From: a virus
Lineage: Duplodnaviria > Caudoviricetes
IMG/VR virus record: IMGVR_UViG_2974611271_000001
Location: 1-64,000 of that record
Strand: one strand, 5' to 3'
DNA length: 64,000 nt
This document shows positions 3,945 to 64,000 of the stretch, piece by piece. The position numbers were made by a program, and so were the translations under genes. The notes under the pieces were generated by a model. It made no database searches. It was given only the letters and a program-made list of their open reading frames with translations, and was not told the origin of the DNA. Numbering within the stretch: the first letter of the stretch is position 1; each line of letters starts with the position of its first letter.

Positions 3945-4171
3945 TCTGGGACGTGATGGCATACGTGCTGTCCGCGTTCACGCTCGCCAACCTCTGGTTG
4001 GCGGGCAACGTCCATCCGTGGACGTGGCGCGTCGGTCTCGTCGGGCAAGCGCTGTGGTTCGTCTTCGTGATTGGCACGCAGCAATGGGGTCTCATGATCG
4101 GCGTCGTTGGTATCGCTGTCGTGATGATCCGCAACGAGGTGAAATGGAGGAAGAACGATGCGAGTGTCTGA
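3941..4171 (+). CDS. small PnuC-like membrane protein
   Basis: About 3 hydrophobic helices; WLAG...W.VGLVGQALW...QWGL pattern. Confidence 0.5.
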   Translation: MIWDVMAYVLSAFTLANLWLAGNVHPWTWRVGLVGQALWFVFVIGTQQWGLMIGVVGIAVVMIRNEVKWRKNDASV

Positions 4172-4358
4172 TTTGGCAGATGCGCTCAATCGCCAAGTCG
4201 CGAATGGGCATGGCGAGTTCGAGGTCGTCGTGCAGATGGGCAATGGTGACACGAAGCCGGTGAACGGATACGAGGTCGCGACATCGGCGGCCTATGTGGC
4301 GGGCGAGGCGCCGAAGGAACGGCAGCAGGTGCGCTTGATCACGAAGGTCCTGTTCTAG
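4158..4358 (+). CDS. hypothetical protein
   Basis: 66-aa ORF after GGAGG. Confidence 0.55.
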   Translation: MRVSDLADALNRQVANGHGEFEVVVQMGNGDTKPVNGYEVATSAAYVAGEAPKERQQVRLITKVLF

Positions 4359-23614: not shown

Positions 23615-24361
23615 ATGGGTAGCAACTCAATGAGGAAACAACGACAAGCCGAAAGAAATTGGAAACCTCCGCAGATTGAGACGCTCACGCAGAAGCAGGC
23701 CTCCTACGTTGCACAACTCGCGAAGAACGATTGCGTGGTCGCCACAGGACCCGCAGGCACGGGCAAGACCTATGTCGCGTGCGCTCACGCCGGACAGGCG
23801 CTCTTCAACAAGGACATCCACAACATCGTCCTGACACGACCCAACGTCGGCGTGGCAGGCAAGACGATGGGCTTCCTCCCGGGTGACGCGAAGCGCAAGA
23901 TGGCGCCTTGGGCCCGTCCGCTCGTCGAGGCGTTTAAACATCACATGGGCGCGAAGAAGCACGAGGAAGCGACCAACCAGGGCAAGATCAAGATCGAGGC
24001 GCTCGAGCACATCAGAGGCCTGACCTTCGACGATGCCGTGATGATCATCGACGAGGCGCAGAACACGACGCCCGAGGAGATGAAGGCTTTCCTGACGCGC
24101 ATCGGCGAGAACTCGCAGGTGATCATCTGCGGCGATGATCGGCAATCCGATCTGCATCCCACCGAGAACGGACTCGCGTGGGTGATGCGCGCAATTGAGC
24201 AAGGCCTCGTGCGCGGGATCGGTCGGACGAAGTTCACGCACGCCGACACCGTGCGCTCGGAGATGTGCCGCATGTGGGCGGAGGCGTTCGACGCGCTCGA
24301 AGACGAGGACGCCGACCCGAAGGCCGGCGTCAATCGTTTCCTGGTTGCGGCGAGCAGTTAA
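23615..24361 (+). CDS. phoH: PhoH-like ATPase
   Basis: GPAGTGKT, MGFLPG, RGLTF, IIDEAQN, CGD..QSD. Confidence 0.92.
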   Translation: MGSNSMRKQRQAERNWKPPQIETLTQKQASYVAQLAKNDCVVATGPAGTGKTYVACAHAGQALFNKDIHNIVLTRPNVGVAGKTMGFLPGDAKRKMAPWARPLVEAFKHHMGAKKHEEATNQGKIKIEALEHIRGLTFDDAVMIIDEAQNTTPEEMKAFLTRIGENSQVIICGDDRQSDLHPTENGLAWVMRAIEQGLVRGIGRTKFTHADTVRSEMCRMWAEAFDALEDEDADPKAGVNRFLVAASS

Positions 24362-24603
24362 AACGGGATCTCATCGTCGAGCGCGACGGCGCCCCAACCC
24401 GACGGCGCAGCGCGCGGCGTGTTCAGCGACGCCTTCCACGCATCGAACTCGAGCGGCTCCTCGCCGTCTTCGTCGCACGCGTTGCAGTAATCGCAGTAGC
24501 CCTCGTGATACGCGTCCAGTTCAGTCGCGGCGAAGCGTTCGCGAACGTCGTCGAACTGAGCGTTGAACTCGTGATCCATGGCTTCCTGGAATTGATCGAA
24601 CAT
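24358..24603 (-). CDS. small acidic protein ending in SSB-like tail DDEIPF
   Basis: D/E-rich 81 aa; CDYCNAC. Confidence 0.65.
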   Translation of the reverse strand: MFDQFQEAMDHEFNAQFDDVRERFAATELDAYHEGYCDYCNACDEDGEEPLEFDAWKASLNTPRAAPSGWGAVALDDEIPF

Positions 24604-48812: not shown

Positions 48813-49700
48813 ATGGCTGCTTCGAAGAAAACCGAAGTCGCGCAAGCGAAAGAGGCGGGGCTTCCCGCCGAACTGATGGACGAACTCGCACTCGACGGTG
48901 AACAGCACCGCGAGACGATGTCCAAGGACGACATGTCCATTCCGTTCCTGGCCATCCTGCAGTCGCTGTCGCCGCAGTGCACGCGCGGCGAGGCCGAGTA
49001 CATCAAAGGCGCCGAACCGTCGGACCTGTTCGACACGGTCACCCAGCGCCTGTTCAAGACGCGCGACGAAGACGACAACGCGATCCCCGCGGAAATCCGC
49101 ATCATGCCGATCCACTACAAGCGGTCCTTCATCGAATGGGTCCCGCGCAACAAGGGCGGCGGCATGGTCCAGGAATACTCTGTCGAGGACGGCCTGTCGA
49201 TCAACACGGCTCGCAACGACATGAACCAGGACATCATCCAGGACGGCTCGCCGCTGGGCACGCCCGGCAACCAGCTGGTCGACACCCACACGCACTTCGT
49301 CTTCGTGATCCACCCGGATGGTTCGTTCGAACCGATGATCCTGGCGCTCTCGAGCACGCAGTTGAAGCCGTCGAAAGACCTCAACAACATGGTCTCGAAG
49401 CACCGGCTGCCCAACGGCGCGCAGGCCGCGCGCTTCTTCGGCGTGTACTCGATCACGACCCAGTTCCGGTCGAACGAGAAGGGCTCCTGGTACATCTGGA
49501 AGTTCGAGAAGGTGGACGACGTTGCCGCCAACAACGACCTCCTGCCGATGTATCGCGAGGCGAAGACCTTCGTCGAAGGCATCAAGTCGGGCGAGCACAA
49601 GGCCGACTACTCGAAGATGGACGGTGAAGAAAATCCTGGGACGGATGACGCAGCACCTGCTGATGGGGGTGGCGACGGCGACGAAGAGATCCCATTCTGA
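48813..49700 (+). CDS. ssDNA-binding / annealing-type protein
   Basis: DD..IPFL.ILQSLSPQ, FIEW.PR..GGG, STQLK.SK, acidic tail EEIPF. Confidence 0.7.
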   Translation: MAASKKTEVAQAKEAGLPAELMDELALDGEQHRETMSKDDMSIPFLAILQSLSPQCTRGEAEYIKGAEPSDLFDTVTQRLFKTRDEDDNAIPAEIRIMPIHYKRSFIEWVPRNKGGGMVQEYSVEDGLSINTARNDMNQDIIQDGSPLGTPGNQLVDTHTHFVFVIHPDGSFEPMILALSSTQLKPSKDLNNMVSKHRLPNGAQAARFFGVYSITTQFRSNEKGSWYIWKFEKVDDVAANNDLLPMYREAKTFVEGIKSGEHKADYSKMDGEENPGTDDAAPADGGGDGDEEIPF

Positions 49701-51541: not shown

Positions 51542-53042
51542 GTCGACACTCATCCTGGGCGGTCCCGGATGCGGCAAGACGACCGCGCTGCTCAAGATCG
51601 TTGAGCAGGCGTTCTCCCGCGGCGTCGAACCGGAACGGATCGCCTTTGTCGCTTTCACACGAAAGGCGGCGCAAGAGGCGAGGGAGCGCATGAGCGAGAA
51701 GTTTGGGATCGAACCCGACCAAATCCCATACTTTCGGACTCTGCACTCCTTCGCTTTCTCATTCATCGACGCGCAGCGGTCACAGATCCTCGACGAGGAC
51801 AAGCTGCGCGAGTATGCGAAGGCGGAGGGCTTGCAGCTCTCCGCATCGTTCATCGACGACTTCAACCAGGCCGAACTCACTCCCCACACGCCCGACGAGC
51901 AAGCGCTTGCTGCCGCTGCTCTGTCGCGTCTGATGTGCGTCCCGTTCGACGACCTCGTGGTGAAGTACGACCTCGACCACGGGCACGCCACGAAGGTCGT
52001 CGCGGACTATGAGGAGTTCAAAGAGGACGCATCGCTGCTCGACTTCACCGACATGATCGAGCAGTTCGACGGTGCTGACCTGCCTTCGTTCGACTTGCTC
52101 ATCGTTGACGAGGCGCAGGACCTTTCGCGACTGCAATGGCGCATGGTCGAGCGCATGATTGAGCACTCGAAGGACGTGTACTTCGCAGGCGACGACGACC
52201 AGGCGATCTACGAATGGGCAGGCGCCGACGTGCCCTACTTCCTCACGCTCGATGCTGACCGCGAGGTCCTTCCCGTTTCATATCGGCTGAAACGAAACAT
52301 CTTCGACGCGTGCCAGAAGATGATTGCGCACTGCGACCACCGCTACGAAAAGGGCTGGCAACCGCACGCCGACGGCGGCGAAGTCGATCACGTCGCCTCG
52401 TTGCACGACCTCGACTTCAGCGAAGGCACCTGGTTCCTTCTCGCACGCACCAACACGCTAGTGCAGGCGTTCACGAAGCACATGCGCGACCAGGGGTGGG
52501 CGTATATCAGCCCGACGGTCGAAGGCATGAAGCCCTCGACGTCCGCGCCCGCGGTGCAAGCCGTCCTGGTGTTCGAAAACCTGAAGCGCGGTCGCACGTT
52601 CAAGGCCGATCAGGTGCAGAACATGTGGAAGCACGTTCGACCGAAACTGCGACCCGAAGCGATGCCAGCATTCCAGCTGGATCAGGACTACGGGATCGAC
52701 GACGTTGCAGCGACGGGGCTCTCGTTCGACATGAACTGGATGGAAGCGCTCGCAATGTCGTCGCCGATGCAGGCCTATATCCGGGCTATGCGCGCACGCG
52801 GGGAATCGCTTATCAAGAAGCCGCGCATCACCGTCTCGACGTTTCACGGCGTCAAAGGCGGCGAGGCAGACAACGTCGTGATCTGGCAGAAGCTGACATC
52901 GCGAACCTATCAACGGTGGATCGAGCATGATGACCAAGAAGTGCGCGCCATGTTCACGGCAATGTCTCGTGCGAAGGAACGGCTCATTTTTCTCGATGCG
53001 CCCACGCGCATCTCATACGGCATAGAAAGGTTCTTGCTATGA
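51528..53042 (+). CDS. UvrD/Rep-like SF1A helicase
   Basis: GGPGCGKT, AFTRKAA, VDEAQD, GDDDQAIY, STFHGVKGGEA, SRAK. Confidence 0.9.
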   Translation: MGRLRSTLILGGPGCGKTTALLKIVEQAFSRGVEPERIAFVAFTRKAAQEARERMSEKFGIEPDQIPYFRTLHSFAFSFIDAQRSQILDEDKLREYAKAEGLQLSASFIDDFNQAELTPHTPDEQALAAAALSRLMCVPFDDLVVKYDLDHGHATKVVADYEEFKEDASLLDFTDMIEQFDGADLPSFDLLIVDEAQDLSRLQWRMVERMIEHSKDVYFAGDDDQAIYEWAGADVPYFLTLDADREVLPVSYRLKRNIFDACQKMIAHCDHRYEKGWQPHADGGEVDHVASLHDLDFSEGTWFLLARTNTLVQAFTKHMRDQGWAYISPTVEGMKPSTSAPAVQAVLVFENLKRGRTFKADQVQNMWKHVRPKLRPEAMPAFQLDQDYGIDDVAATGLSFDMNWMEALAMSSPMQAYIRAMRARGESLIKKPRITVSTFHGVKGGEADNVVIWQKLTSRTYQRWIEHDDQEVRAMFTAMSRAKERLIFLDAPTRISYGIERFLL

Positions 53043-53641
53043 CATCAACGGTACTGCTCGACTGCGACGACGTTCTCCTGAACTGGCTCGACGGCTTCCG
53101 AAAATACGTCGCCGCGAAGCGTGGCGTCGAAATCTGCGAACGCGGCCCGACCGATTGGGTCATGGACGAGTGGCTTGGCACTGAGCCCCACGAAACCATC
53201 CAACTGATCGAGGAGTTCAACGCGTCGCCCGCGTTCGGCAAACTCGAACCCGTCGAAGGTGCGCAGGACGCCATCCGCATGATGGGCGTGATGAGCGACT
53301 ACCACGTGCGGATGCACGTGATCACCTCATGCTCGTCCGATTGGGCGACCGTCGAGATGCGCAAGACCAACCTGCGCGAGCACTACGGGTTCAACACGTT
53401 CGATTCCGTTCACTGCCTCGACCTCGGGCAGTCGAAAGAGTCGATCCTGCACGCGTTCGACGCACCGTGCTTGTGGATCGAAGACAACATCAAGAACGCG
53501 CTTCTGGGCGTGAAAGCCGGGCACCGCGTCGTCATGCGTCAGACGTCGCACAACGTCAGACACCGAGCGGACGCTGAGTCTGCCGGCATCGTCTGGATCG
53601 AACACTGGAACGAACTCAAACTCGGAGACTACTTCAAATGA
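53039..53641 (+). CDS. HAD-family 5'(3')-deoxyribonucleotidase-like
   Basis: LLDCDDVL, ITS, K, WIEDN. Confidence 0.8.
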   Translation: MTSTVLLDCDDVLLNWLDGFRKYVAAKRGVEICERGPTDWVMDEWLGTEPHETIQLIEEFNASPAFGKLEPVEGAQDAIRMMGVMSDYHVRMHVITSCSSDWATVEMRKTNLREHYGFNTFDSVHCLDLGQSKESILHAFDAPCLWIEDNIKNALLGVKAGHRVVMRQTSHNVRHRADAESAGIVWIEHWNELKLGDYFK

Positions 53642-54081
53642 AATACCGCTCGACCAAACTCTTCAAGGACCTCGGCCCTGTCGCATATCGTCAGTGGCGC
53701 GCAGATTCGCACTGCAACCTGATCCACGGCTACTCGCTGTCCTTCAAGTTCACCTTCGAGTCCGACGACCTCGACGCGCGCAACTGGGTCGTCGACTTTG
53801 GCGGTCTCAAGGAAGTGAAGGCGATGCTCGAGTCGCAGTTCGATCACACGCTCCTCGTTGCGTCCGACGATCCGCACCTCGACTGGTACAACGAGGCGCA
53901 CGAGCGCGGCATCGCGAAGGTGATGGAGTTCCCGGCGCTCGGGTGCGAAGCGATTGCCGACATGGTCTTCGAATGGATGGCCGACTGGCTCGCGACGGAC
54001 GGCGGCTACGGCGACCGCGTTCGCCTCGTGTCCGTAGAGGTCATGGAACACGAGAAGAATTCAGCGATCAGGATGGCCTGA
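53638..54081 (+). CDS. queD: 6-carboxy-5,6,7,8-tetrahydropterin synthase
   Basis: SHCNLIHGY, VVDFG.LK, FDH, E.EKNSA. Confidence 0.9.
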   Translation: MKYRSTKLFKDLGPVAYRQWRADSHCNLIHGYSLSFKFTFESDDLDARNWVVDFGGLKEVKAMLESQFDHTLLVASDDPHLDWYNEAHERGIAKVMEFPALGCEAIADMVFEWMADWLATDGGYGDRVRLVSVEVMEHEKNSAIRMA

Positions 54082-55343: not shown

Positions 55344-56192
55344 ATGACATCGAAAGCACTCGTCGTCCTGTCAGGCGGACAGGATTCCACGACATGCCTC
55401 TACTGGGCCCTGCAGCAGGGCTACGATGAGGTCCACGCCATCACCTTCGACTACAATCAGCGCCATCGTGCCGAGATCGACGCAGCCGTGAAGATCGCGA
55501 AGGACGCCGGCGTGAAGACGCACCAGGTGATCGAGATCGGTCCGATCCTGGGCGGCACGTCGCCGCTCGTGTCCGACAACGAACTCGAGCAGTATCCCGA
55601 TGGTGACCTGCCCGGCGGTCTCGAAAAGACCTTCGTGCCGATGCGCAACCAGACCTTCCTCACGCTCGCAGCGAACCGCGCCTACGTGCTCGGCTGTCGC
55701 AACCTGATCACGGGCGTTTGTCAGGAAGACTTCGGCGGCTACCCCGACTGTCGGCAGGTGTTCATCGACGCGCTCGAGAAGGCCTGCAACCTGGGCACAT
55801 TCACGGGTGAGGATGGCGCGCTCGGCGCGTTGAAGATCCACACCCCGCTGATGAACCTCACGAAGGCCGAAAGCGTGCATCTCGCGCGCCGCCTGCCCGG
55901 GTGCATGGAGGCGCTCGCGTACTCCCACACGGCCTACGACGGTCAGTATCCGCCGACCGGCTCCGATCACGCGACGAAGTTGCGCGAACAGGGCTTCGAG
56001 GCGGCAGGCGTCGCGGACCCGATCTGGTTGCGTGCCGCGTGCGAAGGCCTGGGCGAGCTGCCCGCGTCGTCGAACTACGACATCGCGCGCGAAGTCACGG
56101 CGAAGGGTCCCAAGGGCAAGAAGAAGCACTGGACGCCTGACGAGTTCGTCTCGCTCGTTCAGGAAGCCGAGTTCGACGCGGTGCCCGCCTGA
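55344..56192 (+). CDS. queC: 7-cyano-7-deazaguanine synthase
   Basis: SGGQDSTT, FDYNQRH..E, TFVPMRN, GYPDCR..F, TPLM.LTK. Confidence 0.93.
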   Translation: MTSKALVVLSGGQDSTTCLYWALQQGYDEVHAITFDYNQRHRAEIDAAVKIAKDAGVKTHQVIEIGPILGGTSPLVSDNELEQYPDGDLPGGLEKTFVPMRNQTFLTLAANRAYVLGCRNLITGVCQEDFGGYPDCRQVFIDALEKACNLGTFTGEDGALGALKIHTPLMNLTKAESVHLARRLPGCMEALAYSHTAYDGQYPPTGSDHATKLREQGFEAAGVADPIWLRAACEGLGELPASSNYDIAREVTAKGPKGKKKHWTPDEFVSLVQEAEFDAVPA

Positions 56193-56755
56193 TGGACACG
56201 AAGCACGACATCATCCGCGCGATGCTGCGCGAGATCGGTGAGGATGAACGCGAAGGGCTGGCTGAAACGCCAGCCCGGGTCGTCAAGGCGTGGAACACCT
56301 GGTTCGGCGGATACGGGCGCGACCCGGTCGAAGTCCTGAAGGTGTTCGAAGACGGCGCCGAAGGCGTGGACGAGATGGTCATCGAAGTCGACATCCCGTT
56401 CTACACGCACTGCGAGCACCACATGGCGCCTTTCTTCGGCCTCGCGTCCGTCGCGTATGTCCCGAACGGGAAAGTGCTCGGCCTGTCGAAGATGAACCGC
56501 CTCGTCGATCTGTTCGCGCGTCGCCTGCAGGTTCAGGAGCGTCTCACGAACCAGATCGCCGACGCGCTCGAGGAAAACCTGAAACCGAAAGGCGTGGGCG
56601 TCCTGCTGCGTGCGCGCCACATGTGCGTCGAGTCGCGCGGTGTTCAGCATCGCGGATGCTCGACCACGACGAGCGCGCTGCGAGGCGCGATCAAAGACGA
56701 ACCGGACGCGCGGATGGAATTCCTGACGCTCGCCAAGACGACAACGCCAATCTGA
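56192..56755 (+). CDS. folE: GTP cyclohydrolase I
   Basis: REGL.ETP.RV, CEHH..PF, GLSK..R, RRLQVQERLT.QIA, HMC...RG. Confidence 0.95.
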   Translation: MDTKHDIIRAMLREIGEDEREGLAETPARVVKAWNTWFGGYGRDPVEVLKVFEDGAEGVDEMVIEVDIPFYTHCEHHMAPFFGLASVAYVPNGKVLGLSKMNRLVDLFARRLQVQERLTNQIADALEENLKPKGVGVLLRARHMCVESRGVQHRGCSTTTSALRGAIKDEPDARMEFLTLAKTTTPI

Positions 56756-56763
56756 GGACCAAC

Positions 56764-57348
56764 ATGACCACGGAATACTCGAAACCCGACGACCTCGAGA
56801 AGCTGGGCTCCGGCTCCGCTGATCAACGTGAGTGGCCCAAGCTGCCTCCCACGCCCGAAGTGCTCGAGCGCTTCCCGAACCCGATGAAGTTCTCGCGTCA
56901 CCCGTCGCCCAATCCCATCCAGCTCGGCGGCTACGACGACCCCTTCGAGTTCACTTCGCTGTGTCCGAAGACCGGTCAGCCCGATCATGCGCGCATCGTC
57001 GTCAACTACCAGCCGAAGGACTGGTGCGTTGAGTCGAAGTCGTGGAAGATCTACCTGCAATCGTTCCGGCTGCATGGCGAATTCCACGAGTCTTGCATCC
57101 AGCGCATCAAGGACGACCTGGTCGACCTGCTCGACCCGCTGTGGATCGAGGTGACCGGCGAGTTCACGCCGCGCGGCGGCATCTCGATCAACCCGACTGC
57201 GCGCTGGGAATACCCGATGAAGGGCGTCACGTTCGAACAGATGACCGACACGCGCTCGCCGCAAGATCGCCTGAACGAGATGCTGGCGAATGGCTCGCAC
57301 GTCGGCGAGCGTATCGGTGAAGGCGAAATGCCTGATCCGACCATGTGA
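56764..57348 (+). CDS. queF: NADPH-dependent preQ0 reductase (type I)
   Basis: EFTSLCPKTGQPD, QueF motif ESKSWKIYL, FHESC, PRGGI. Confidence 0.92.
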   Translation: MTTEYSKPDDLEKLGSGSADQREWPKLPPTPEVLERFPNPMKFSRHPSPNPIQLGGYDDPFEFTSLCPKTGQPDHARIVVNYQPKDWCVESKSWKIYLQSFRLHGEFHESCIQRIKDDLVDLLDPLWIEVTGEFTPRGGISINPTARWEYPMKGVTFEQMTDTRSPQDRLNEMLANGSHVGERIGEGEMPDPTM

Positions 57349-57630: not shown

Positions 57631-58923
57631 ATGCACCTTTACATGAGCGGCACGCCGCGCAACGACCCCTACCAGACCATCGAGAATCGCCTCTGCACGC
57701 ATCGCCTTTTCTCGATGCACGCCGAGTATGAACGCCCAGTGCTGCGCTGGGTCGATGATCTGCGCAACGGCATCCTCGACGCTGAGGACTACCTGCGCGC
57801 CTACCCGCACCACCGAGACAACATCATCAAGCGCGACGCCGCGCGCCGTGAGATGCAGAAGCAGTATGGGCACAGCGAGGACTACGACATGTCCGAAGTG
57901 CTCGAGCACGTCTGCAAGACGCTCAAGGGCCGTCCATACCCGAAGGCGATCCTGCTCGACTCGGGCGCGTTCACGGCCTGGAACAAAGGCGAGACGACGA
58001 CGGTCGACGACGTGAAGCGCAAGTACACGTCCTTCATCGAGAAGGCCGGCGACATGTTCGACGAGATCTGGGGCGTCAACCTCGACGTAATCCCGGGCGA
58101 AAAAGGTCGCGACCCGACCGAAGACGAACTCAAGCGCGCGGTCGAGGTGTCGGACATCAACTTCGAGATCCTGGTCAAGGAGTTCGGGGACATCATCCTT
58201 CCCGTGTATCACCAAGGCGAAAGCCTCGACCGGCTCGACGGGTGCGTTGCGCAGGTCGATGGCAAATCGAACTACATCTGCGTCTCGCCTCGAAACGACC
58301 TGCCGGAAGGCAAGCGCGTCGATTGGTCGCGCGACGTTCACTTCGAGATCAAGCGTCGCTACTCGCACATCATGACGCACGGCCTCGCGACGACGGGCAA
58401 TCGCATGGTTCGCACCGTGCCGTGGTACTCGGGCGACTCCGCCGCATGGGTGCAGCACGGCGGCTTCGGCATGATCGACATCTTCCACGACGAAGATCAC
58501 TCGTTCGGTCGCAAAGCGCAGCCGCACTACATGAACTACTTCGTGTCGCTCGACAAAGTCGAGTTCGACCTCGACGGCTCCTTCGTGTCGAAGACCGGTG
58601 AGCGTTTAAACGCGCGGTCGCTCGGCTGTCATGAGGATATGAAGATGGGCGAGGTTGCCGAGGTCTTGATGCAGCATGTGTCCGACATCGACGCGCTGCC
58701 CATGGTTGGCGGTCACATTCGCGACGAGTCCAAGCACTTCAATCGGCTGGGACCTGAGCACCGTGCGTTCATCAAGCAACGCGTCGAACGCCTCGGTTTC
58801 CCGTTCGAGTCGTGCCGCTGGGATTCTCGCATCAGGAATCTGATCTGCATGGCTGAGTTCGTCGAGTTCGCTGAATGGGCGAAAGATGCGCCGAAAGACC
58901 GCGCGCAGGTGAGCCTCTTCTGA
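57631..58923 (+). CDS. dpdA: DNA-guanine transglycosylase (DpdA-like, TGT fold)
   Basis: LLDSGAFT, NLDVIPG, LPVYHQGE, HGLA, PWYSGDSAAW; next to que genes. Confidence 0.8.
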   Translation: MHLYMSGTPRNDPYQTIENRLCTHRLFSMHAEYERPVLRWVDDLRNGILDAEDYLRAYPHHRDNIIKRDAARREMQKQYGHSEDYDMSEVLEHVCKTLKGRPYPKAILLDSGAFTAWNKGETTTVDDVKRKYTSFIEKAGDMFDEIWGVNLDVIPGEKGRDPTEDELKRAVEVSDINFEILVKEFGDIILPVYHQGESLDRLDGCVAQVDGKSNYICVSPRNDLPEGKRVDWSRDVHFEIKRRYSHIMTHGLATTGNRMVRTVPWYSGDSAAWVQHGGFGMIDIFHDEDHSFGRKAQPHYMNYFVSLDKVEFDLDGSFVSKTGERLNARSLGCHEDMKMGEVAEVLMQHVSDIDALPMVGGHIRDESKHFNRLGPEHRAFIKQRVERLGFPFESCRWDSRIRNLICMAEFVEFAEWAKDAPKDRAQVSLF

Positions 58924-59234
58924 TGTTTGAGATCCTGCACTCCGCAATGCAACGCGACCAGGTGCGTTTCGTGGACGACGGCTTCTTCATGTTCGCGGAT
59001 CGGGGCGACTTCGTCACGTCGACCGCGTTCTTCGCCATGAAGCCATCCGCGGCGCACATCATGGTCGCAGACATCGAGAAGATCGCGAACGGGCGACCGA
59101 TCAGGATCAGTCTGAACAAGGCCGACGAACTCGAGGCACGCGCGCTGGAATCGTCCGGCTTTGTCGTCGTCGAGGAGAAAGGCCAGCTCAACTACTGGGT
59201 GAAGGGGGACCTGCATGCTGCTCGCGATGCGTGA
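58923..59234 (+). CDS. degenerate GNAT-fold paralogue
   Basis: Aligns by eye with next gene (VDDG/VDGG, AMKP/ATKP, ESSGF/EKKGF, GQLNYW/GRELNVW); lacks G.G motif. Confidence 0.6.
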   Translation: MFEILHSAMQRDQVRFVDDGFFMFADRGDFVTSTAFFAMKPSAAHIMVADIEKIANGRPIRISLNKADELEARALESSGFVVVEEKGQLNYWVKGDLHAARDA

Positions 59235-59550
59235 GGCCGCCGAGGCCGGACATCTCAAGATCGTCGATGGCGGGTTGCTCGAGTTCAAACCGCGCCGCGA
59301 CGGGCAACTGACGATCTACACCATTGTGGCGACGAAGCCCGGCGTCGGTTCGCAACTGTTCAAGTGGCTGCTCGACTACTGCCGCGAGCACCGCGTGCAA
59401 TTCATTCAGGCGAAGTGCCCGGTCGATCTGCCGAGCAACGCCTGGTACGAGAAAAAGGGCTTCGAACTCGCGTGCGTCGAAAAGACGAAACGCTCGGGCC
59501 GTGAGTTGAACGTGTGGCGGTATCCGCTGACACGTCGGGAGCTGTTCTGA
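59215..59550 (+). CDS. GNAT acetyltransferase
   Basis: IYTIV..KPGVGSQL (motif A), SNAWYEKKGF (motif B). Confidence 0.8.
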   Translation: MLLAMREAAEAGHLKIVDGGLLEFKPRRDGQLTIYTIVATKPGVGSQLFKWLLDYCREHRVQFIQAKCPVDLPSNAWYEKKGFELACVEKTKRSGRELNVWRYPLTRRELF

Positions 59551-60758
59551 TGGATTGGTCCGATGATCAAAAGACCGCGCTGACGCGCATCGACCAATGG
59601 TTGAAGCAGAGCGATTCTCCGCGGTTCTCTCTGGGTGGCTACGCCGGGACGGGTAAGACGACGCTCGCCAAGCACATCGCGGAGAGCCACGGCGGAGACG
59701 TGCGCTTTGCGGCGTTCACAGGCAAAGCCGCGTCCGTGTTGCGCGCGAAGGGCTGTCCAGGTGCGACGACCATCCACAAACTGATCTACCAGCCGAAAGG
59801 CGACACCAACGCTTCGCAGATCGACGAACTGCGACAACTGATCGAAAACGAATCCGCGAAACCTGAACCCGACCGCGCGAACATCGCGACATGGAAGCAC
59901 GACCTCGAACGGCTCGAGGCGGAATCCAATGCGATGTTTGAGCGCAAGGCCGAAGCCGAGATCGCGGAAGCGGACCTCGTGATCATCGACGAGTCGTCGA
60001 TGGTCGACCGACGCATGGGAAGCGACCTCGAGTCCTACGGCGTGCCGATCCTGTATCTCGGCGACCCCGGCCAGCTCCCGCCCGTCAAAGGCAAGGCGCA
60101 TCTTCGTCCCGGCGAGTACGACTACGTCCTCGAGCAGATCCATCGCCAAGCGGCGGACAGCCCGATCATCTGGCTCGCCAATCAGGTGCGCAACGGGCAC
60201 GAGATCCAGTTCGGCACGTTCGACGGCCTGGTGCGCTGCCTGCCGAAGTCGTCGTGGGACATGGATCTCGTCGTCAACGCAGATCAGGTCCTGACAGGAA
60301 CCAACGTGTCGCGGCATCGCATCACGCGGTCGATGCGCAAGCACATCGGTTTCGAGCAGCTCTATCCGCTCGCCAACGACAAACTCGTGATCCGAAAGAA
60401 CGATCACGAGAAAGCGATCCTGAACGGCGTCACGTGTCGCGCGGTGCGCGAAGGTTTCCTGCGCAACGGCATCCTTCGACTGGACATCGAGTACGACGGT
60501 CGAGTGCTCGCAGACCAGCTCTGTTGCCCGGGCTATTTCCAGGAAAACTACGGCGAGCGAACCGTCTGGAAAAAAGGCGACGGCATCACCCACGTCGACT
60601 ATGGCTACTGCATCACTGGTCACAAGTCGCAGGGCTCGCAATGGCGGCACGTCGTCGTCGCAGACGACCGGATGCGTGCCCAGGACCGCGAACAGCGCAA
60701 GCGCTGGCTCTATACCGTTATCACACGCGCAGAAGAGGAACTGACGTATTATGTCTAG
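59550..60758 (+). CDS. Dda/RecD-like SF1B helicase
   Basis: GYAGTGKTT, FTGKAA, IDESSM, GDPGQLPPV, HRQ, HKSQGSQW, YT.ITRA. Confidence 0.9.
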   Translation: MDWSDDQKTALTRIDQWLKQSDSPRFSLGGYAGTGKTTLAKHIAESHGGDVRFAAFTGKAASVLRAKGCPGATTIHKLIYQPKGDTNASQIDELRQLIENESAKPEPDRANIATWKHDLERLEAESNAMFERKAEAEIAEADLVIIDESSMVDRRMGSDLESYGVPILYLGDPGQLPPVKGKAHLRPGEYDYVLEQIHRQAADSPIIWLANQVRNGHEIQFGTFDGLVRCLPKSSWDMDLVVNADQVLTGTNVSRHRITRSMRKHIGFEQLYPLANDKLVIRKNDHEKAILNGVTCRAVREGFLRNGILRLDIEYDGRVLADQLCCPGYFQENYGERTVWKKGDGITHVDYGYCITGHKSQGSQWRHVVVADDRMRAQDREQRKRWLYTVITRAEEELTYYV

Positions 60759-61122
60759 GACTCGCGAGCAACACAACGCTTACATGCGAGAGTGGCGCAC
60801 GCGCGACCCAGTTCGTGCGTTACTGGCGTCCGCGAAGAAGTCAGCAAAAATTCGCGGAATTGAGTTCTCGCTCGTCCGAGAAGACGTCAAGATTCCTGCG
60901 CGCTGCCCAATCTTTGCAATCCCGCTGCGCCTCGGTAAAGAAGGACTTGGAGCATGTCGAGATGCGGCGCCTTCTATTGACCGAATTGACTCGAGCAAAG
61001 GATACGTTCGAGGAAATATCGTCGTGGTATCGTTCAAAGCGAACCGCATCAAGAGCAACGCCTCAGCCGACGAGGTGTTGAAAGTCGGAAGATTCTACAA
61101 GGAGCTGACAACTAATGTTTGA
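60751..61122 (+). CDS. HNH-like endonuclease (putative homing endonuclease)
   Basis: CPIF.IPL...PSIDRIDSSKGY..GN..VVS..AN..K; AT-shifted codons. Confidence 0.75.
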   Translation: MSRTREQHNAYMREWRTRDPVRALLASAKKSAKIRGIEFSLVREDVKIPARCPIFAIPLRLGKEGLGACRDAAPSIDRIDSSKGYVRGNIVVVSFKANRIKSNASADEVLKVGRFYKELTTNV

Positions 61123-61552
61123 CACCTTCCACGATCACCTGAGCCGGCAGTGCGCTGTCGGCCGCGAGAAGTTCGGCCCTGGCGAACGCACGAAAGGCGT
61201 GATGGACCACATCCGCAAGGAGTTCGACGAGATCGAAGCCGAGGAAACGCCCGACGGGCGCGCCGAGGAATGGACGGACGTCGCCATCCTGGGCCTCGAC
61301 GGTCTGTTGCGCGCCGTTCGCGAAATGCTGCGCAAGCAGCTCTCGAAGCAGGAGGTCCCGCACGGCATCAACGTCGACCGCGGGGGCAACATCCTGGGCT
61401 ATAACGGCGAGCCGACCAACGACTTCGTCGCCGCGGTCGCGTGCCGCATGATCCGCCAGAAGCAGGCGAAGAACGAATTGCGCGACTTCGGCAACTGGCG
61501 CGACAAGTCCGAAGACGTCGCAATCGAGCACACGCGAGGCATCCATGACTGA
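61115..61552 (+). CDS. DUF550 dATP/dGTP pyrophosphohydrolase (MazG-like)
   Basis: FGPG.R..G..DHIRKE..E...EW.DV.IL.LDG..R...KQ.KN..R.F..WR. Confidence 0.85.
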   Translation: MFDTFHDHLSRQCAVGREKFGPGERTKGVMDHIRKEFDEIEAEETPDGRAEEWTDVAILGLDGLLRAVREMLRKQLSKQEVPHGINVDRGGNILGYNGEPTNDFVAAVACRMIRQKQAKNELRDFGNWRDKSEDVAIEHTRGIHD

Positions 61553-62213
61553 GATCAAGACACTCGTCTTCGACACCGAAACCAACGGCAAGCGCCCGAA
61601 GGGGCGTAACGTGCCGTTGACGTCCGAGCCCGGTCTCGTCCAGCTCGCCGCGATCTTGTATCTCGGCCGGCGACCCGTCGGGCACATGTCTTGCTTCATG
61701 CCGCCGTTGGGTGCGCAAGGTGATCGACGACCCATCCCCGATCCCGCGCTCGCGCCGAACGGCTTGACGGAGAAGGACTACGAATTCTTCCGAAAATCGG
61801 GCATCACCGAGGAAACGGTCGACGCAGCCGGCCTTCCGTTCAAGGTGGGCGTCGCGATGTTCAACAACTTCGTGAAGGTCGCCGACCGCATCGTTGCGCA
61901 CAACATCGCCTTCGACGATCCGATTGTCCGGGCCGCCTACTCCCGCATCGCGTGCCCGCAGCAAGAGCTTTGGGAAACACCCAAGTTCTGCACTATGAAA
62001 ACCCTCGAGCCCGTGCTCAAACTGCCTGGCAAGTATGGCTACAAATTCCCGACGCTGGACGAGTCATACCGAGCACTCGTGGACCCGATGGGTTTCGAGG
62101 GCGCTCACGATGCGATGGTCGACGTGGAAGCGTGCGCCGCCGTGCTGTGGGCAATCGAAGACAAGGGTCACGACCTCTGGCAGCTGCCCGAGAATTGGCC
62201 GAAAGGAGAATGA
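61545..62213 (+). CDS. DEDDh 3'-5' exonuclease (DnaQ-like)
   Basis: FDTETNG, VAHNIAFD, AHDAMVDV. Confidence 0.88.
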   Translation: MTEIKTLVFDTETNGKRPKGRNVPLTSEPGLVQLAAILYLGRRPVGHMSCFMPPLGAQGDRRPIPDPALAPNGLTEKDYEFFRKSGITEETVDAAGLPFKVGVAMFNNFVKVADRIVAHNIAFDDPIVRAAYSRIACPQQELWETPKFCTMKTLEPVLKLPGKYGYKFPTLDESYRALVDPMGFEGAHDAMVDVEACAAVLWAIEDKGHDLWQLPENWPKGE

Positions 62214-62216
62214 ACG

Positions 62217-63191
62217 GTGAAAACAGAATTCAACCTCATCCGTCCCGCGTGTGACTTCGCTGGTGTGATCTCGACCGACGCGTCGGTTCACATCCTCGGC
62301 GGTCGCATGGAGACGGCAAACAAGAAACTGATCGTGTCGCAGCCGGTCGACGGCCTGCCCGACATGACGGTCGCCGCGGTCGATCTCGACTTCGTCTTGC
62401 GCAAGATGCCGGACGTCGAGTCGGTCAAGGTCAACAAGACCTTCGCGACGCTCAATCCGTCGACCGGGTCCTCGACGCGTATCAAGTTGATGCCCGACGG
62501 CAAGCCCTACAAGAAACCCGACATCGAGACGACCGACATCGTGGACATCGCCGGTCTGCTGAACGGCATCGACGAAGTGCTCCCGTTCTCTGTCGGCGAT
62601 CCGACACGACCCTGGTCCGAAGGCGCGCGGTTCGACGGCACGAAGATCACCGCCACGAACTCGACGATGCTGATCCAGGCGAACATGGCGGAGAGCTGCG
62701 GTCTCGACGGCATCACGATCTCGCGTGAAGCGCTGCAGTACATCGCGCAGAGAGGCGACGCTCTGAAAGCGTGGGGCGTGTCTGAGCGCGGCATCCTGCT
62801 CGAGTATCACGACGGCGGCTGGGCGCTTGTCGCTCGCATGTCGATGGAGATGCCCGACAACGCGGTGACGATGATCAACGGCATCAACGATTGGTCCGAC
62901 ATGCAGGAAGTCGACGACGAGTACCGCGCGGCGCTCGAGTTCACGTCCGACTTCGCCGAGAAGGCGGTCGAGATCCATGCCGACAAGATCTTCGGCGCGC
63001 GGTACTCGTCGGAACACGACGAGCCTGCGACGACGAATCTCGGCGACGTTGACAAGGCGGTCTTCGATCCGAAGAACCTCGTGCTTGTCGCGCGCGTCGC
63101 GAACGAGATCGGTTTCGACCGGTACCCGAACCCGGTACCGTTCACCACCCCCGGCGGCTCGAAAGGCCTCATCGCCGGACTCATCGAGTAA
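62217..63191 (+). CDS. DNA sliding clamp-like protein (DnaN-like, divergent)
   Basis: 324 aa; ATN motif in second domain, C-terminal P..F......GLI..; follows DnaQ-like gene. Confidence 0.55.
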   Translation: MKTEFNLIRPACDFAGVISTDASVHILGGRMETANKKLIVSQPVDGLPDMTVAAVDLDFVLRKMPDVESVKVNKTFATLNPSTGSSTRIKLMPDGKPYKKPDIETTDIVDIAGLLNGIDEVLPFSVGDPTRPWSEGARFDGTKITATNSTMLIQANMAESCGLDGITISREALQYIAQRGDALKAWGVSERGILLEYHDGGWALVARMSMEMPDNAVTMINGINDWSDMQEVDDEYRAALEFTSDFAEKAVEIHADKIFGARYSSEHDEPATTNLGDVDKAVFDPKNLVLVARVANEIGFDRYPNPVPFTTPGGSKGLIAGLIE

Positions 63192-63205: not shown

Positions 63206-63598
63206 ATGAACATTTTCAGCAAACTCGTGCAGGCGCTCACGGGCGACAAGACGAAGGAAGGCCCGATCCCGGGCGCGATGGGGCGCATCCTCGCGCAGCA
63301 AGGCATCTACAAGATCGGCCCGCACGTGCGCAAAGGCACGCCGGTCAATGTCCTGATGGGCTGCAAGGAAGAACTCGTGATCGTTCCCGGCTCTGATCGG
63401 CCCGCGACGCGCAAGGACGGCACGCCGATCATCGGCACCGCGAAGGGCGGGAAGAAGTATCAGGTCATGGACCAGTACGCGATCCCGAAAAAGCGCTGGA
63501 AGGCGATGCAGAACGACCAGAAGCGCAAGGCCGAGGGTCGCTGGTATTCCGGCGAGCCGCAATCGTCCATCGACGCGCGGAAAGCGAAGGCGGCCTGA
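63206..63598 (+). CDS. hypothetical basic protein
   Basis: 130-aa ORF coupled to queE. Confidence 0.6.
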   Translation: MNIFSKLVQALTGDKTKEGPIPGAMGRILAQQGIYKIGPHVRKGTPVNVLMGCKEELVIVPGSDRPATRKDGTPIIGTAKGGKKYQVMDQYAIPKKRWKAMQNDQKRKAEGRWYSGEPQSSIDARKAKAA

Positions 63599-64000
63599 TG
63601 TTCGGTCACAATGAAATCGTCGGGAAGCGTGCGTTTCCCGACGACGACAAACTCCTGGTCACTTCGATCTTCGTCACGATGCAAGGCGAAGGACCTTTCT
63701 CGGGAATGCCCGCCGTCTTCGTGCGCCTCGCGAAGTGCAATCTCGCGTGCTCGTTCTGCGACACCTACTTCGATTCCGGCGACTGGCTGACGTTCGACGA
63801 ACTGGACACGTGCATCGACGACTTGCTGTGGGATGCGTCGCCCGTCCTGGACAAGGAAGACTATGTCCTGATCATCACCGGCGGCGAACCAATGCTGCAG
63901 AAGGCGCTCGTGCCCTACCTGTACTCGCAGGATCGGAAATGGCGCCACGTGCAGATCGAATCCAACGGCATCATCGTGCAGGACATCCCGGCGGCGGTCA
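63598..64000 (+). CDS. queE: 7-carboxy-7-deazaguanine synthase (radical SAM), truncated by window end
   Basis: SIF.TMQGEGP..G.PAVFVRL..CNLACSFCDT, ITGGEP, IESNG. Confidence 0.92.
   Translation, partial: MFGHNEIVGKRAFPDDDKLLVTSIFVTMQGEGPFSGMPAVFVRLAKCNLACSFCDTYFDSGDWLTFDELDTCIDDLLWDASPVLDKEDYVLIITGGEPMLQKALVPYLYSQDRKWRHVQIESNGIIVQDIPAAV

Follow-up and report, generated by a model that had tools for sequence, protein, structure and literature searches.

Bacterial partners of the beta sliding clamp, such as Pol II, Pol IV, Pol V, Hda, MutS and MutL, bind it through short peptides of the QL(S/D)LF type. This consensus motif is described as variable (PMC9690074). We analysed a 64,000-nucleotide stretch of phage DNA (Duplodnaviria; Caudoviricetes), i.e., positions 1 to 64,000 of the 77,874-base IMG/VR virus record IMGVR_UViG_2974611271_000001, which is kin to the Nanhaivirus phages R26L and Pan1; "the window" below means this whole stretch. 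It encodes DpdA, a DNA guanine transglycosylase, which replaces guanine in DNA by a 7-deazaguanine base and whose C-terminal residues are Q-V-S-L-F, and a sliding clamp of the beta type. We propose, with a probability of about 0.65 based on motif, model and gene comparisons, that the DpdA tail docks the enzyme on the phage's own clamp.

A phage counterpart is found in T4 and RB69, in which the gp43 polymerase, gp33 and gp55 use hydrophobic terminal tails to bind the gp45 clamp. The arrangement proposed here is alike in that a phage-encoded clamp would serve several phage proteins via short terminal peptides of one flavour; it differs in that gp45 is a PCNA-like trimer while the clamp here is DnaN-like, and in that the two peptides sit at opposite ends, N-terminal in the polymerase and C-terminal in DpdA. 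A clamp-binding motif of gp55 is also mentioned in PMC9690074. In common with the bacterial clients, the window DpdA carries Q-x-x-L-F at a disordered terminus and shows the same tolerance to variation, and the clamp encoded near dpdA is, like their partner, of the three-domain beta type; unlike them, DpdA is a base-exchange hypermodification enzyme, a class absent from the clamp-partner table of the same source (PMC9690074). Coupling of a DNA-marking enzyme to a replication clamp, so that DNA is marked during its synthesis (as proposed here), is known for DNMT1, a maintenance methyltransferase that a PCNA-binding motif tethers to PCNA (PMC9690074). DpdA differs from DNMT1 in clamp family, in motif (a PIP box in DNMT1) and in chemistry (base exchange instead of methyl transfer), and the two are not homologous.

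Within the DpdA family itself, the bacterial enzyme depends on the ParB-like ATPase DpdB, for which a dimer enclosing a DNA-sized tunnel of 20 Å has been modelled (PMC10164549). The phage enzyme belongs to the same family and has the same need for help on DNA; unlike the bacterial pair, the window DpdA has no ParB-like neighbour and carries a clamp-type tail instead, and its accessory would be the replicative clamp. Insertion of 7-deazaguanines is described only as a post-replication event in the available text of Cui et al. (2023, PMC10516641). The word "clamp" was not found in the available texts, supplements excluded, of Hutinet 2019, Cui 2023, the Iggy paper and the DpdA/DpdB structure paper, and among the literature matches listed none joins, by title or abstract, DpdA or deazaguanine modification of phage DNA with clamp binding. 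The question touched here is what directs phage DpdA to its substrate and what makes the extent of modification vary so widely, for which a clamp-docking tail offers a concrete and cheaply testable mechanism.

The DpdA tail, the phage clamp and the polymerase peptide

The features that carry the argument are the following (AF2, AlphaFold2; TGT, tRNA-guanine transglycosylase):
57631..58923, + strand: DpdA, DNA guanine transglycosylase of the TGT superfamily, 430 amino acids (phrog_887, AF2/Foldseek)
58888..58920, + strand: disordered C-terminal tail of DpdA, residues 420-430, made of a variable linker and Q-V-S-L-F (motif 58906-58920; AF2, alignment)
62217..63191, + strand: beta-type (DnaN-like) sliding clamp, 324 amino acids, proposed docking partner (phrog_947, fold)

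The open reading frame (ORF) at 57631-58923 matched phrog_887, "queuine tRNA-ribosyltransferase", with an expectation value (E) of 1.1e-72 in a PHROG profile comparison. Its AF2 model has a predicted local distance difference test score (pLDDT) of 90.3, and the 29 best Foldseek matches of the model are exclusively TGT and DpdA structures (DpdA 7ui4 at rank 24), with scores that are weak because of large insertions (E 4e-4 to 1.4e-3, template-modelling score (TM) 0.34-0.38). Among 137 diverse DpdA homologues, residues D152 and D269 are invariant, D110 is nearly so, and G112 is invariant or nearly invariant; the three aspartates are candidate catalytic residues.

A sequence-only reading of the window had given the end of DpdA as DRAQVSLF, which the translation of the last codons bears out (58897-58923, D-R-A-Q-V-S-L-F-stop). 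Q-V-S-L-F occupies residues 426-430 and fits the Q-x-x-[LM]-[FL] or QL(S/D)LF pattern of clamp motifs. In the AF2 model the last helix spans residues 399-419 and is followed by low-confidence coil at 420-430, with a mean pLDDT of 61 over the last 10 residues and values below 50 at residues 428-430.

Conservation of the motif was assessed in 120 DpdA homologues from a 90%-clustered protein collection, a set that includes the window's own protein and one fragment. The pattern Q-x-x-[LMIV]-[FLMIYW] lies in the last 12 residues of 85 of them, and the strict form Q..L[FL] in 75, against 3.2 and 0.68 expected from shuffling the last 30 residues; internal 12-residue windows of the same proteins match in 24 of 3690 cases, and many of the 35 homologues outside the pattern end in near variants. 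Among 55 aligned sequences of close relatives, Q426 is kept in 52 and L429 in 51 (both >90%), while in the linker columns 419-425 the commonest residue is found in just 16-32 of 51-55 sequences, K422 excepted (45/51). The tail is still present at 26-40% core identity: in a set of 150 sequences representing clusters at 50% identity, 47 match the Q pattern, and many more end in L-F plus 0-3 residues without the Q. Conserved Q426 and L429, a variable linker and wide recurrence together mark the tail as a short linear motif kept by selection, and by these sequence criteria the DpdA tail is more than chance. Among the approximately 124 ORFs of the 77.9-kb genome left after filtering by GC content at third codon positions, DpdA has the sole clear C-terminal Q-x-x-L-F. 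Apart from DpdA, just one product of this genome, that of a 66-amino-acid ORF at 4158-4358, has a C-terminal L-F with a Q close by; it ends Q-Q-V-R-L-I-T-K-V-L-F.

The proposed partner, read from its letters as DnaN-like, does fold as a clamp. By sequence, the 62217-63191 product gave no Pfam match and no meaningful match to a PDB sequence, and PHROGs and fold comparison were needed for its identification: it matches phrog_947, "DNA polymerase processivity factor" (E 2.9e-38), its AF2 model (pLDDT 93.6, predicted TM 0.86) shows the three-domain beta-clamp fold, and all top Foldseek matches listed are bacterial DnaN (best E 6.9e-18, TM 0.70-0.78), at 8-16% identity to the solved DnaN chains matched.

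Two further replication genes lie just past the window end, here in genome coordinates:
64432-66447: family-A polymerase
67137-68057: clamp loader (DNA_pol3_delta2, E 9e-24)

The large ORF that follows the clamp gene in related loci encodes a family-A polymerase in 7 of 10 cases tested; two others are parts of the uracil-DNA glycosylase-exonuclease type and one had no match. A peptide of the form G-[LMIFV]-[FYIA]-W occurs within the first 30 residues in 29 of 45 distinct post-clamp large ORFs and in 0 of 892 internal windows of those proteins; several more ORFs carry it behind a mis-called start, and the polymerases of phages 9g, ALK and pVco-14 share the same N-terminus. The N-terminal consensus of the family-A polymerases encoded after phrog_947 genes reads M-R-x-D-x-x-G-L-F-W. 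It is probably their clamp-binding motif; no description of this N-terminus was found in the literature searches made.

In the polymerase of the present phage, residues 19-23 read D-L-F-G-G; this peptide lies within a non-conserved N-terminal stretch and resembles the L-F-G-G tails of sister DpdAs. The flavours of the DpdA and polymerase peptides also match in individual loci, for example G-F-F in both proteins of viral contig L084, Q-[LV]-D-[LM]-[LM]-G in both of L019, and L-F followed by Gly or Asp in both in the Nanhaivirus group. Since a polymerase is an expected clamp client and here carries the same type of peptide as DpdA, the clamp would be the common partner of the two. A clamp-type tail at the C-terminus of the polymerase was considered and rejected, as that end is a conserved family-A motif.

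Tail and clamp across phages, and competing explanations

In the phages 9g, Iggy, RHph_Y55, ZHS, ALK, pVco-14, Dp-1 and Flasso, a phrog_947 clamp gene lies 0-4 genes downstream of dpdA, and DpdA ends in Q-x(1-2)-L-[F/W] in all eight of these clamp-linked lineages, whose hosts range from E. coli to Streptococcus and Bacillus. The same ending is found in none of three DpdAs linked to a ParB-like gene (phiSM, Mufasa8 and Sonali). No phrog_947 gene is present in the whole genomes of Mufasa8 and Sonali; in phiSM, one lies 2.5 kb downstream of dpdA.

A larger comparison comprised 93 rows, i.e., 80 viral contigs retrieved by a profile built from the 137 diverse DpdAs, less one with a broken frame, plus 13 named phages and the window; a tail was defined here as L-[F/W] at most 4 residues from the end, and three rows were uninformative. 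In a first pass with a clamp hidden Markov model (HMM) of our own, 50 rows had tail and clamp, 7 a tail and no clamp, 12 a clamp and no tail, and 21 neither. This HMM missed or under-scored distant clamps, which were rescued via phrog_947 (L055, L056, L063, L073, L079, L093). All seven rows with a tail and no clamp in the first pass turned out to have a phrog_947 clamp, either farther off or missed by the HMM, and so did L073, first counted as having neither. The corrected table has 57 rows with tail and clamp, none with a tail and no clamp, 13 with a clamp and no tail, and 20 with neither, a clamp being counted in the dpdA locus or elsewhere in the record; the clamp gene of the 57 tail-bearing rows usually lies just downstream of dpdA.

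Several observations weigh against docking on the phage clamp. Thirteen clamp-linked DpdAs lack a strict tail, nine of them with near variants (L-L-G-D-L, I-F, G-F-F) and four, including that of phiSM, without any hydrophobic tail. The 93 rows are not dereplicated and are related by descent, which inflates the tail-clamp counts and overstates their independence. In the DpdA tree the association is mainly a split between clades, the tail-bearing, clamp-linked DpdAs forming mostly one deep group, and a tree-aware independent-pairs test had just 4 supported contrasts (tail concordant with clamp in about 1.3, opposite in 0.1, no difference in 2.6), with a median p of 1 and significance out of reach. 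The association is thus real as a pattern, and its independence from descent is not established by the four-contrast test. The D-L-F-G-G of this phage's polymerase is internal to the N-terminal stretch and has no Q. As to function, the 9g DpdA together with Gat-QueC is reported to modify plasmid DNA in E. coli, up to 18 +/- 10% of G, without the phage clamp (PMC6884629); the clamp is therefore not needed for catalysis, and the sequence-only conclusion that host DNA is spared does not follow. The modified share of G is given there as 28% in Rosebush and just 1.7% in Dp-1 (PMC6884629); Rosebush has neither tail nor clamp and Dp-1 has both, so that tail and modification level are not simply linked.

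Among the alternatives, the one that survives best takes the tail as an intrinsic element of DpdA (an oligomer contact, a DNA wedge or an autoinhibitory plug) and the clamp link as shared descent of one replication module. The tree test and the grouping of tail-bearing, clamp-linked DpdAs in mostly one deep group are what such an explanation would lead one to expect. However, the tail is predicted to be disordered, its linker varies freely, and it persists at low core identity; moreover, an unrelated polymerase has the same type of peptide at its opposite end, and a neighbouring DNA methylase carries one too. We consider an intrinsic role unlikely.

It is quite unlikely, in our judgement, that the tail binds host DnaN instead and that DpdA rides host-type clamps: the motif does fit the bacterial consensus and the 9g enzyme is active in E. 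coli with no 9g clamp present (PMC6884629), but every one of the 57 informative rows with a tail encodes its own phrog_947 clamp, the polymerase beside the phage clamp has a related peptide, and the motif flavours track phage lineage. The tail might also bind both clamps. Its occurrence only where a phage clamp is encoded, together with the polymerase peptide, argues for the phage's clamp over that of the host. The earlier suggestion that the modifying enzymes ride a phage or host clamp is thereby narrowed to DpdA, whose tail stands as a clamp motif with the phage clamp favoured by comparison, while its extension to a GNAT protein (see below) is weak.

Terminal peptides mediate other replisome contacts in phage T7, and tips of the acidic type known from single-stranded DNA-binding protein (SSB) are also used by the present phage; the tail might accordingly bind another replisome protein, such as the polymerase, helicase, SSB or clamp loader. 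This we regard as very unlikely, since the peptide type is common to polymerase and DpdA and so hints at a third protein bound by both, no gene but that of the clamp goes with the tail in every case, and the motif is clamp-like and not of the acidic D-E-E-I-P-F type. Finally, short motifs do arise at random and another small ORF of this genome ends V-L-F, but a functionless chance resemblance is hardly credible with 85 of 120 homologues against 3.2 expected and with Q426 and L429 each conserved above 90%.

Docking on the phage clamp is thus the reading that we prefer. Q-V-S-L-F, on its 11-residue disordered tail, would act as a sliding-clamp-binding peptide and dock DpdA on the 62217-63191 product, which the phage clamp loader would put at phage replication forks. 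The clamp is expected to be dimeric and to offer a pair of pockets, and the N-terminal peptide of the polymerase and the DpdA tail might either share one ring or exchange on it. From these comparisons we infer that DpdA would bind the clamp physically, in the hydrophobic pocket between clamp domains II and III, that it would act with fork timing, and that efficiency or selectivity may gain from this. If true, DNA hypermodification would be linked to the replisome as DNMT1 is to PCNA, and the phage clamp is predicted to be a hub for anti-restriction enzymes.

ParB-like neighbours of tail-less DpdAs

The tail-less DpdAs end in a conserved L-W-x-x-R-G-x-x-W, and a gene with a ParB_N domain lies immediately downstream in 14 of the 15 loci scanned (L060-L094). 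A ParB-like gene adjoins dpdA in phiSM, Mufasa8, Sonali and Rosebush too. Loci that combine this ending with a ParB_N neighbour are mostly without a clamp (phiSM has one), and the Rosebush genome, with its tail-less DpdA, has no phrog_947 gene. Because tail-less DpdAs have a ParB-like neighbour and the bacterial enzyme needs DpdB, tail and ParB partner look like alternatives, and we infer that they would be alternative ways to keep DpdA on DNA. These features supply a sorting rule for DpdA systems, i.e., a terminal L-F tail plus a phrog_947 clamp versus a ParB-like neighbour.

More tentatively, and with some doubt on our side, DpdA may need a ring on DNA that phages provide in two mutually exclusive ways, either by a ParB-like DpdB or by a clamp tail beside the polymerase (a tool-belt), with base exchange in the latter case being co-replicative. 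Phage DNA would then be preferred without a strict sequence code, and other modifiers of the cassette, such as the GNAT protein and the DNA methylase, may use the same dock.

Other candidate clients and neighbouring genes

Two small ORFs follow dpdA directly:
58923..59234, + strand: 103-amino-acid ORF, start codon overlapping the stop of dpdA (TGATG; ORF call)
59215..59550, + strand: short GNAT-like protein, 111 amino acids, ending R-R-E-L-F, possible second clamp client (Pfam Acetyltransf_1)

The 58923-59234 product has no Pfam or PHROG match. The sequence-only reading had taken the second protein as an active GNAT ending T-R-R-E-L-F; that ending is present, but the GNAT assignment is weak, with a Pfam Acetyltransf_1 match (E 0.0013, 19.4 bits) under the 20.7 cut-off and precomputed GNAT Pfam domains on one homologue. 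Among 11 homologues, four end R-R-E-L-F, one T-T-L-F and five otherwise, and one has a related L-D-F-E, so that a comparable tail is present in 4-6 of 11, and the Q of the motif is in none. In L084, the end L-F recurs in a distant GNAT of full length encoded next to dpdA. As a second clamp client, the 59215-59550 product is therefore suggestive only. A DNA methylase (N6_N4_Mtase) next to dpdA in L077 (5686-6420) likewise ends L-F, which fits the clamp-client idea.

GNAT-type genes adjoin dpdA in several unrelated phages that carry QueF (L084:8818-9294, L085:10209-11143, L087:3799-4736 and, in the window, 58923-59234/59215-59550), with two GNAT genes in tandem in L085 and L087. It is a matter of speculation that a GNAT acylates the aminomethyl group of preQ1 in the DNA of this phage; acylated preQ1 is not among the eight derivatives listed in PMC10516641.

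Other ends were noted in the same survey. QueC next to dpdA in L084 (7474-8199) ends L-F, which is unexpected for a small-molecule enzyme. A YkgJ-like cysteine-cluster protein is encoded just upstream of dpdA in Pan1 and two viral contigs (L002:7347-7997, L017:8601-9254, L005:6524-7186); it ends P-L-F-L-E or P-L-L-V-E-A and is absent from the window and from R26L. The NT5C-like phosphatase at 53039-53641, with the end L-K-L-G-D-Y-F-K, was rejected as a second client because orthologue ends differ and seem to be part of the fold.

Downstream of dpdA, the two small ORFs are followed in order by a Dda-like helicase, an HNH endonuclease, a dNTP pyrophosphohydrolase-like gene, a DnaQ-like exonuclease and the clamp:
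59514..60758, + strand: Dda/RecD-like superfamily 1 helicase (AAA_30 E 1.1e-20; UvrD_C_2 E 1e-15; phrog_325 E 3.8e-96)
60751-61122: HNH/endonuclease VII-like gene (phrog_3322 E 2e-36)
61545..62213, + strand: DnaQ-like 3'-5' exonuclease (Pfam RNase_T E 2.1e-8; phrog_192 "DNA polymerase exonuclease subunit" E 1.5e-27)

The DnaQ-like and DnaN-like genes that had been placed downstream of dpdA from the letters alone are indeed there, 2.6 kb and 3.3 kb away, respectively. The exonuclease has an aromatic C-terminus, L-W-Q-L-P-E-N-W-P, kept in R26L, Pan1 and three viral contigs, which may serve as a further interaction motif that contacts the polymerase or the clamp. The HNH gene, which sits between the helicase and the pyrophosphohydrolase-like gene, has no counterpart at this place in R26L and Pan1 and is probably a mobile insertion. 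Acidic tips of the SSB type end two proteins, D-E-E-I-P-F and D-D-E-I-P-F, at 48813-49700 (+ strand) and 24358-24603 (- strand), respectively; the tip of the former is shared by its R26L orthologues, and both proteins probably dock on partners that bind SSB tips.

The dpdA gene shares its module with a full preQ0/preQ1 set, i.e., FolE, QueD, QueC, QueF and QueE:
53638..54081, + strand: QueD, 6-carboxytetrahydropterin synthase (Pfam PTPS E 3.8e-18)
55344..56192, + strand: QueC (Pfam QueC E 8.9e-54)
56192..56755, + strand: FolE, GTP cyclohydrolase I (Pfam GTP_cyclohydroI E 1.2e-66)
56764..57348, + strand: QueF-like preQ0 reductase (Pfam QueF E 1.3e-29)
63598..64000, + strand: QueE, radical SAM, reaching the window end and running to 64431 in the genome (R26L and Pan1 orthologues annotated QueE)

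As the module includes a QueF-like reductase, the base inserted by DpdA should be preQ1.

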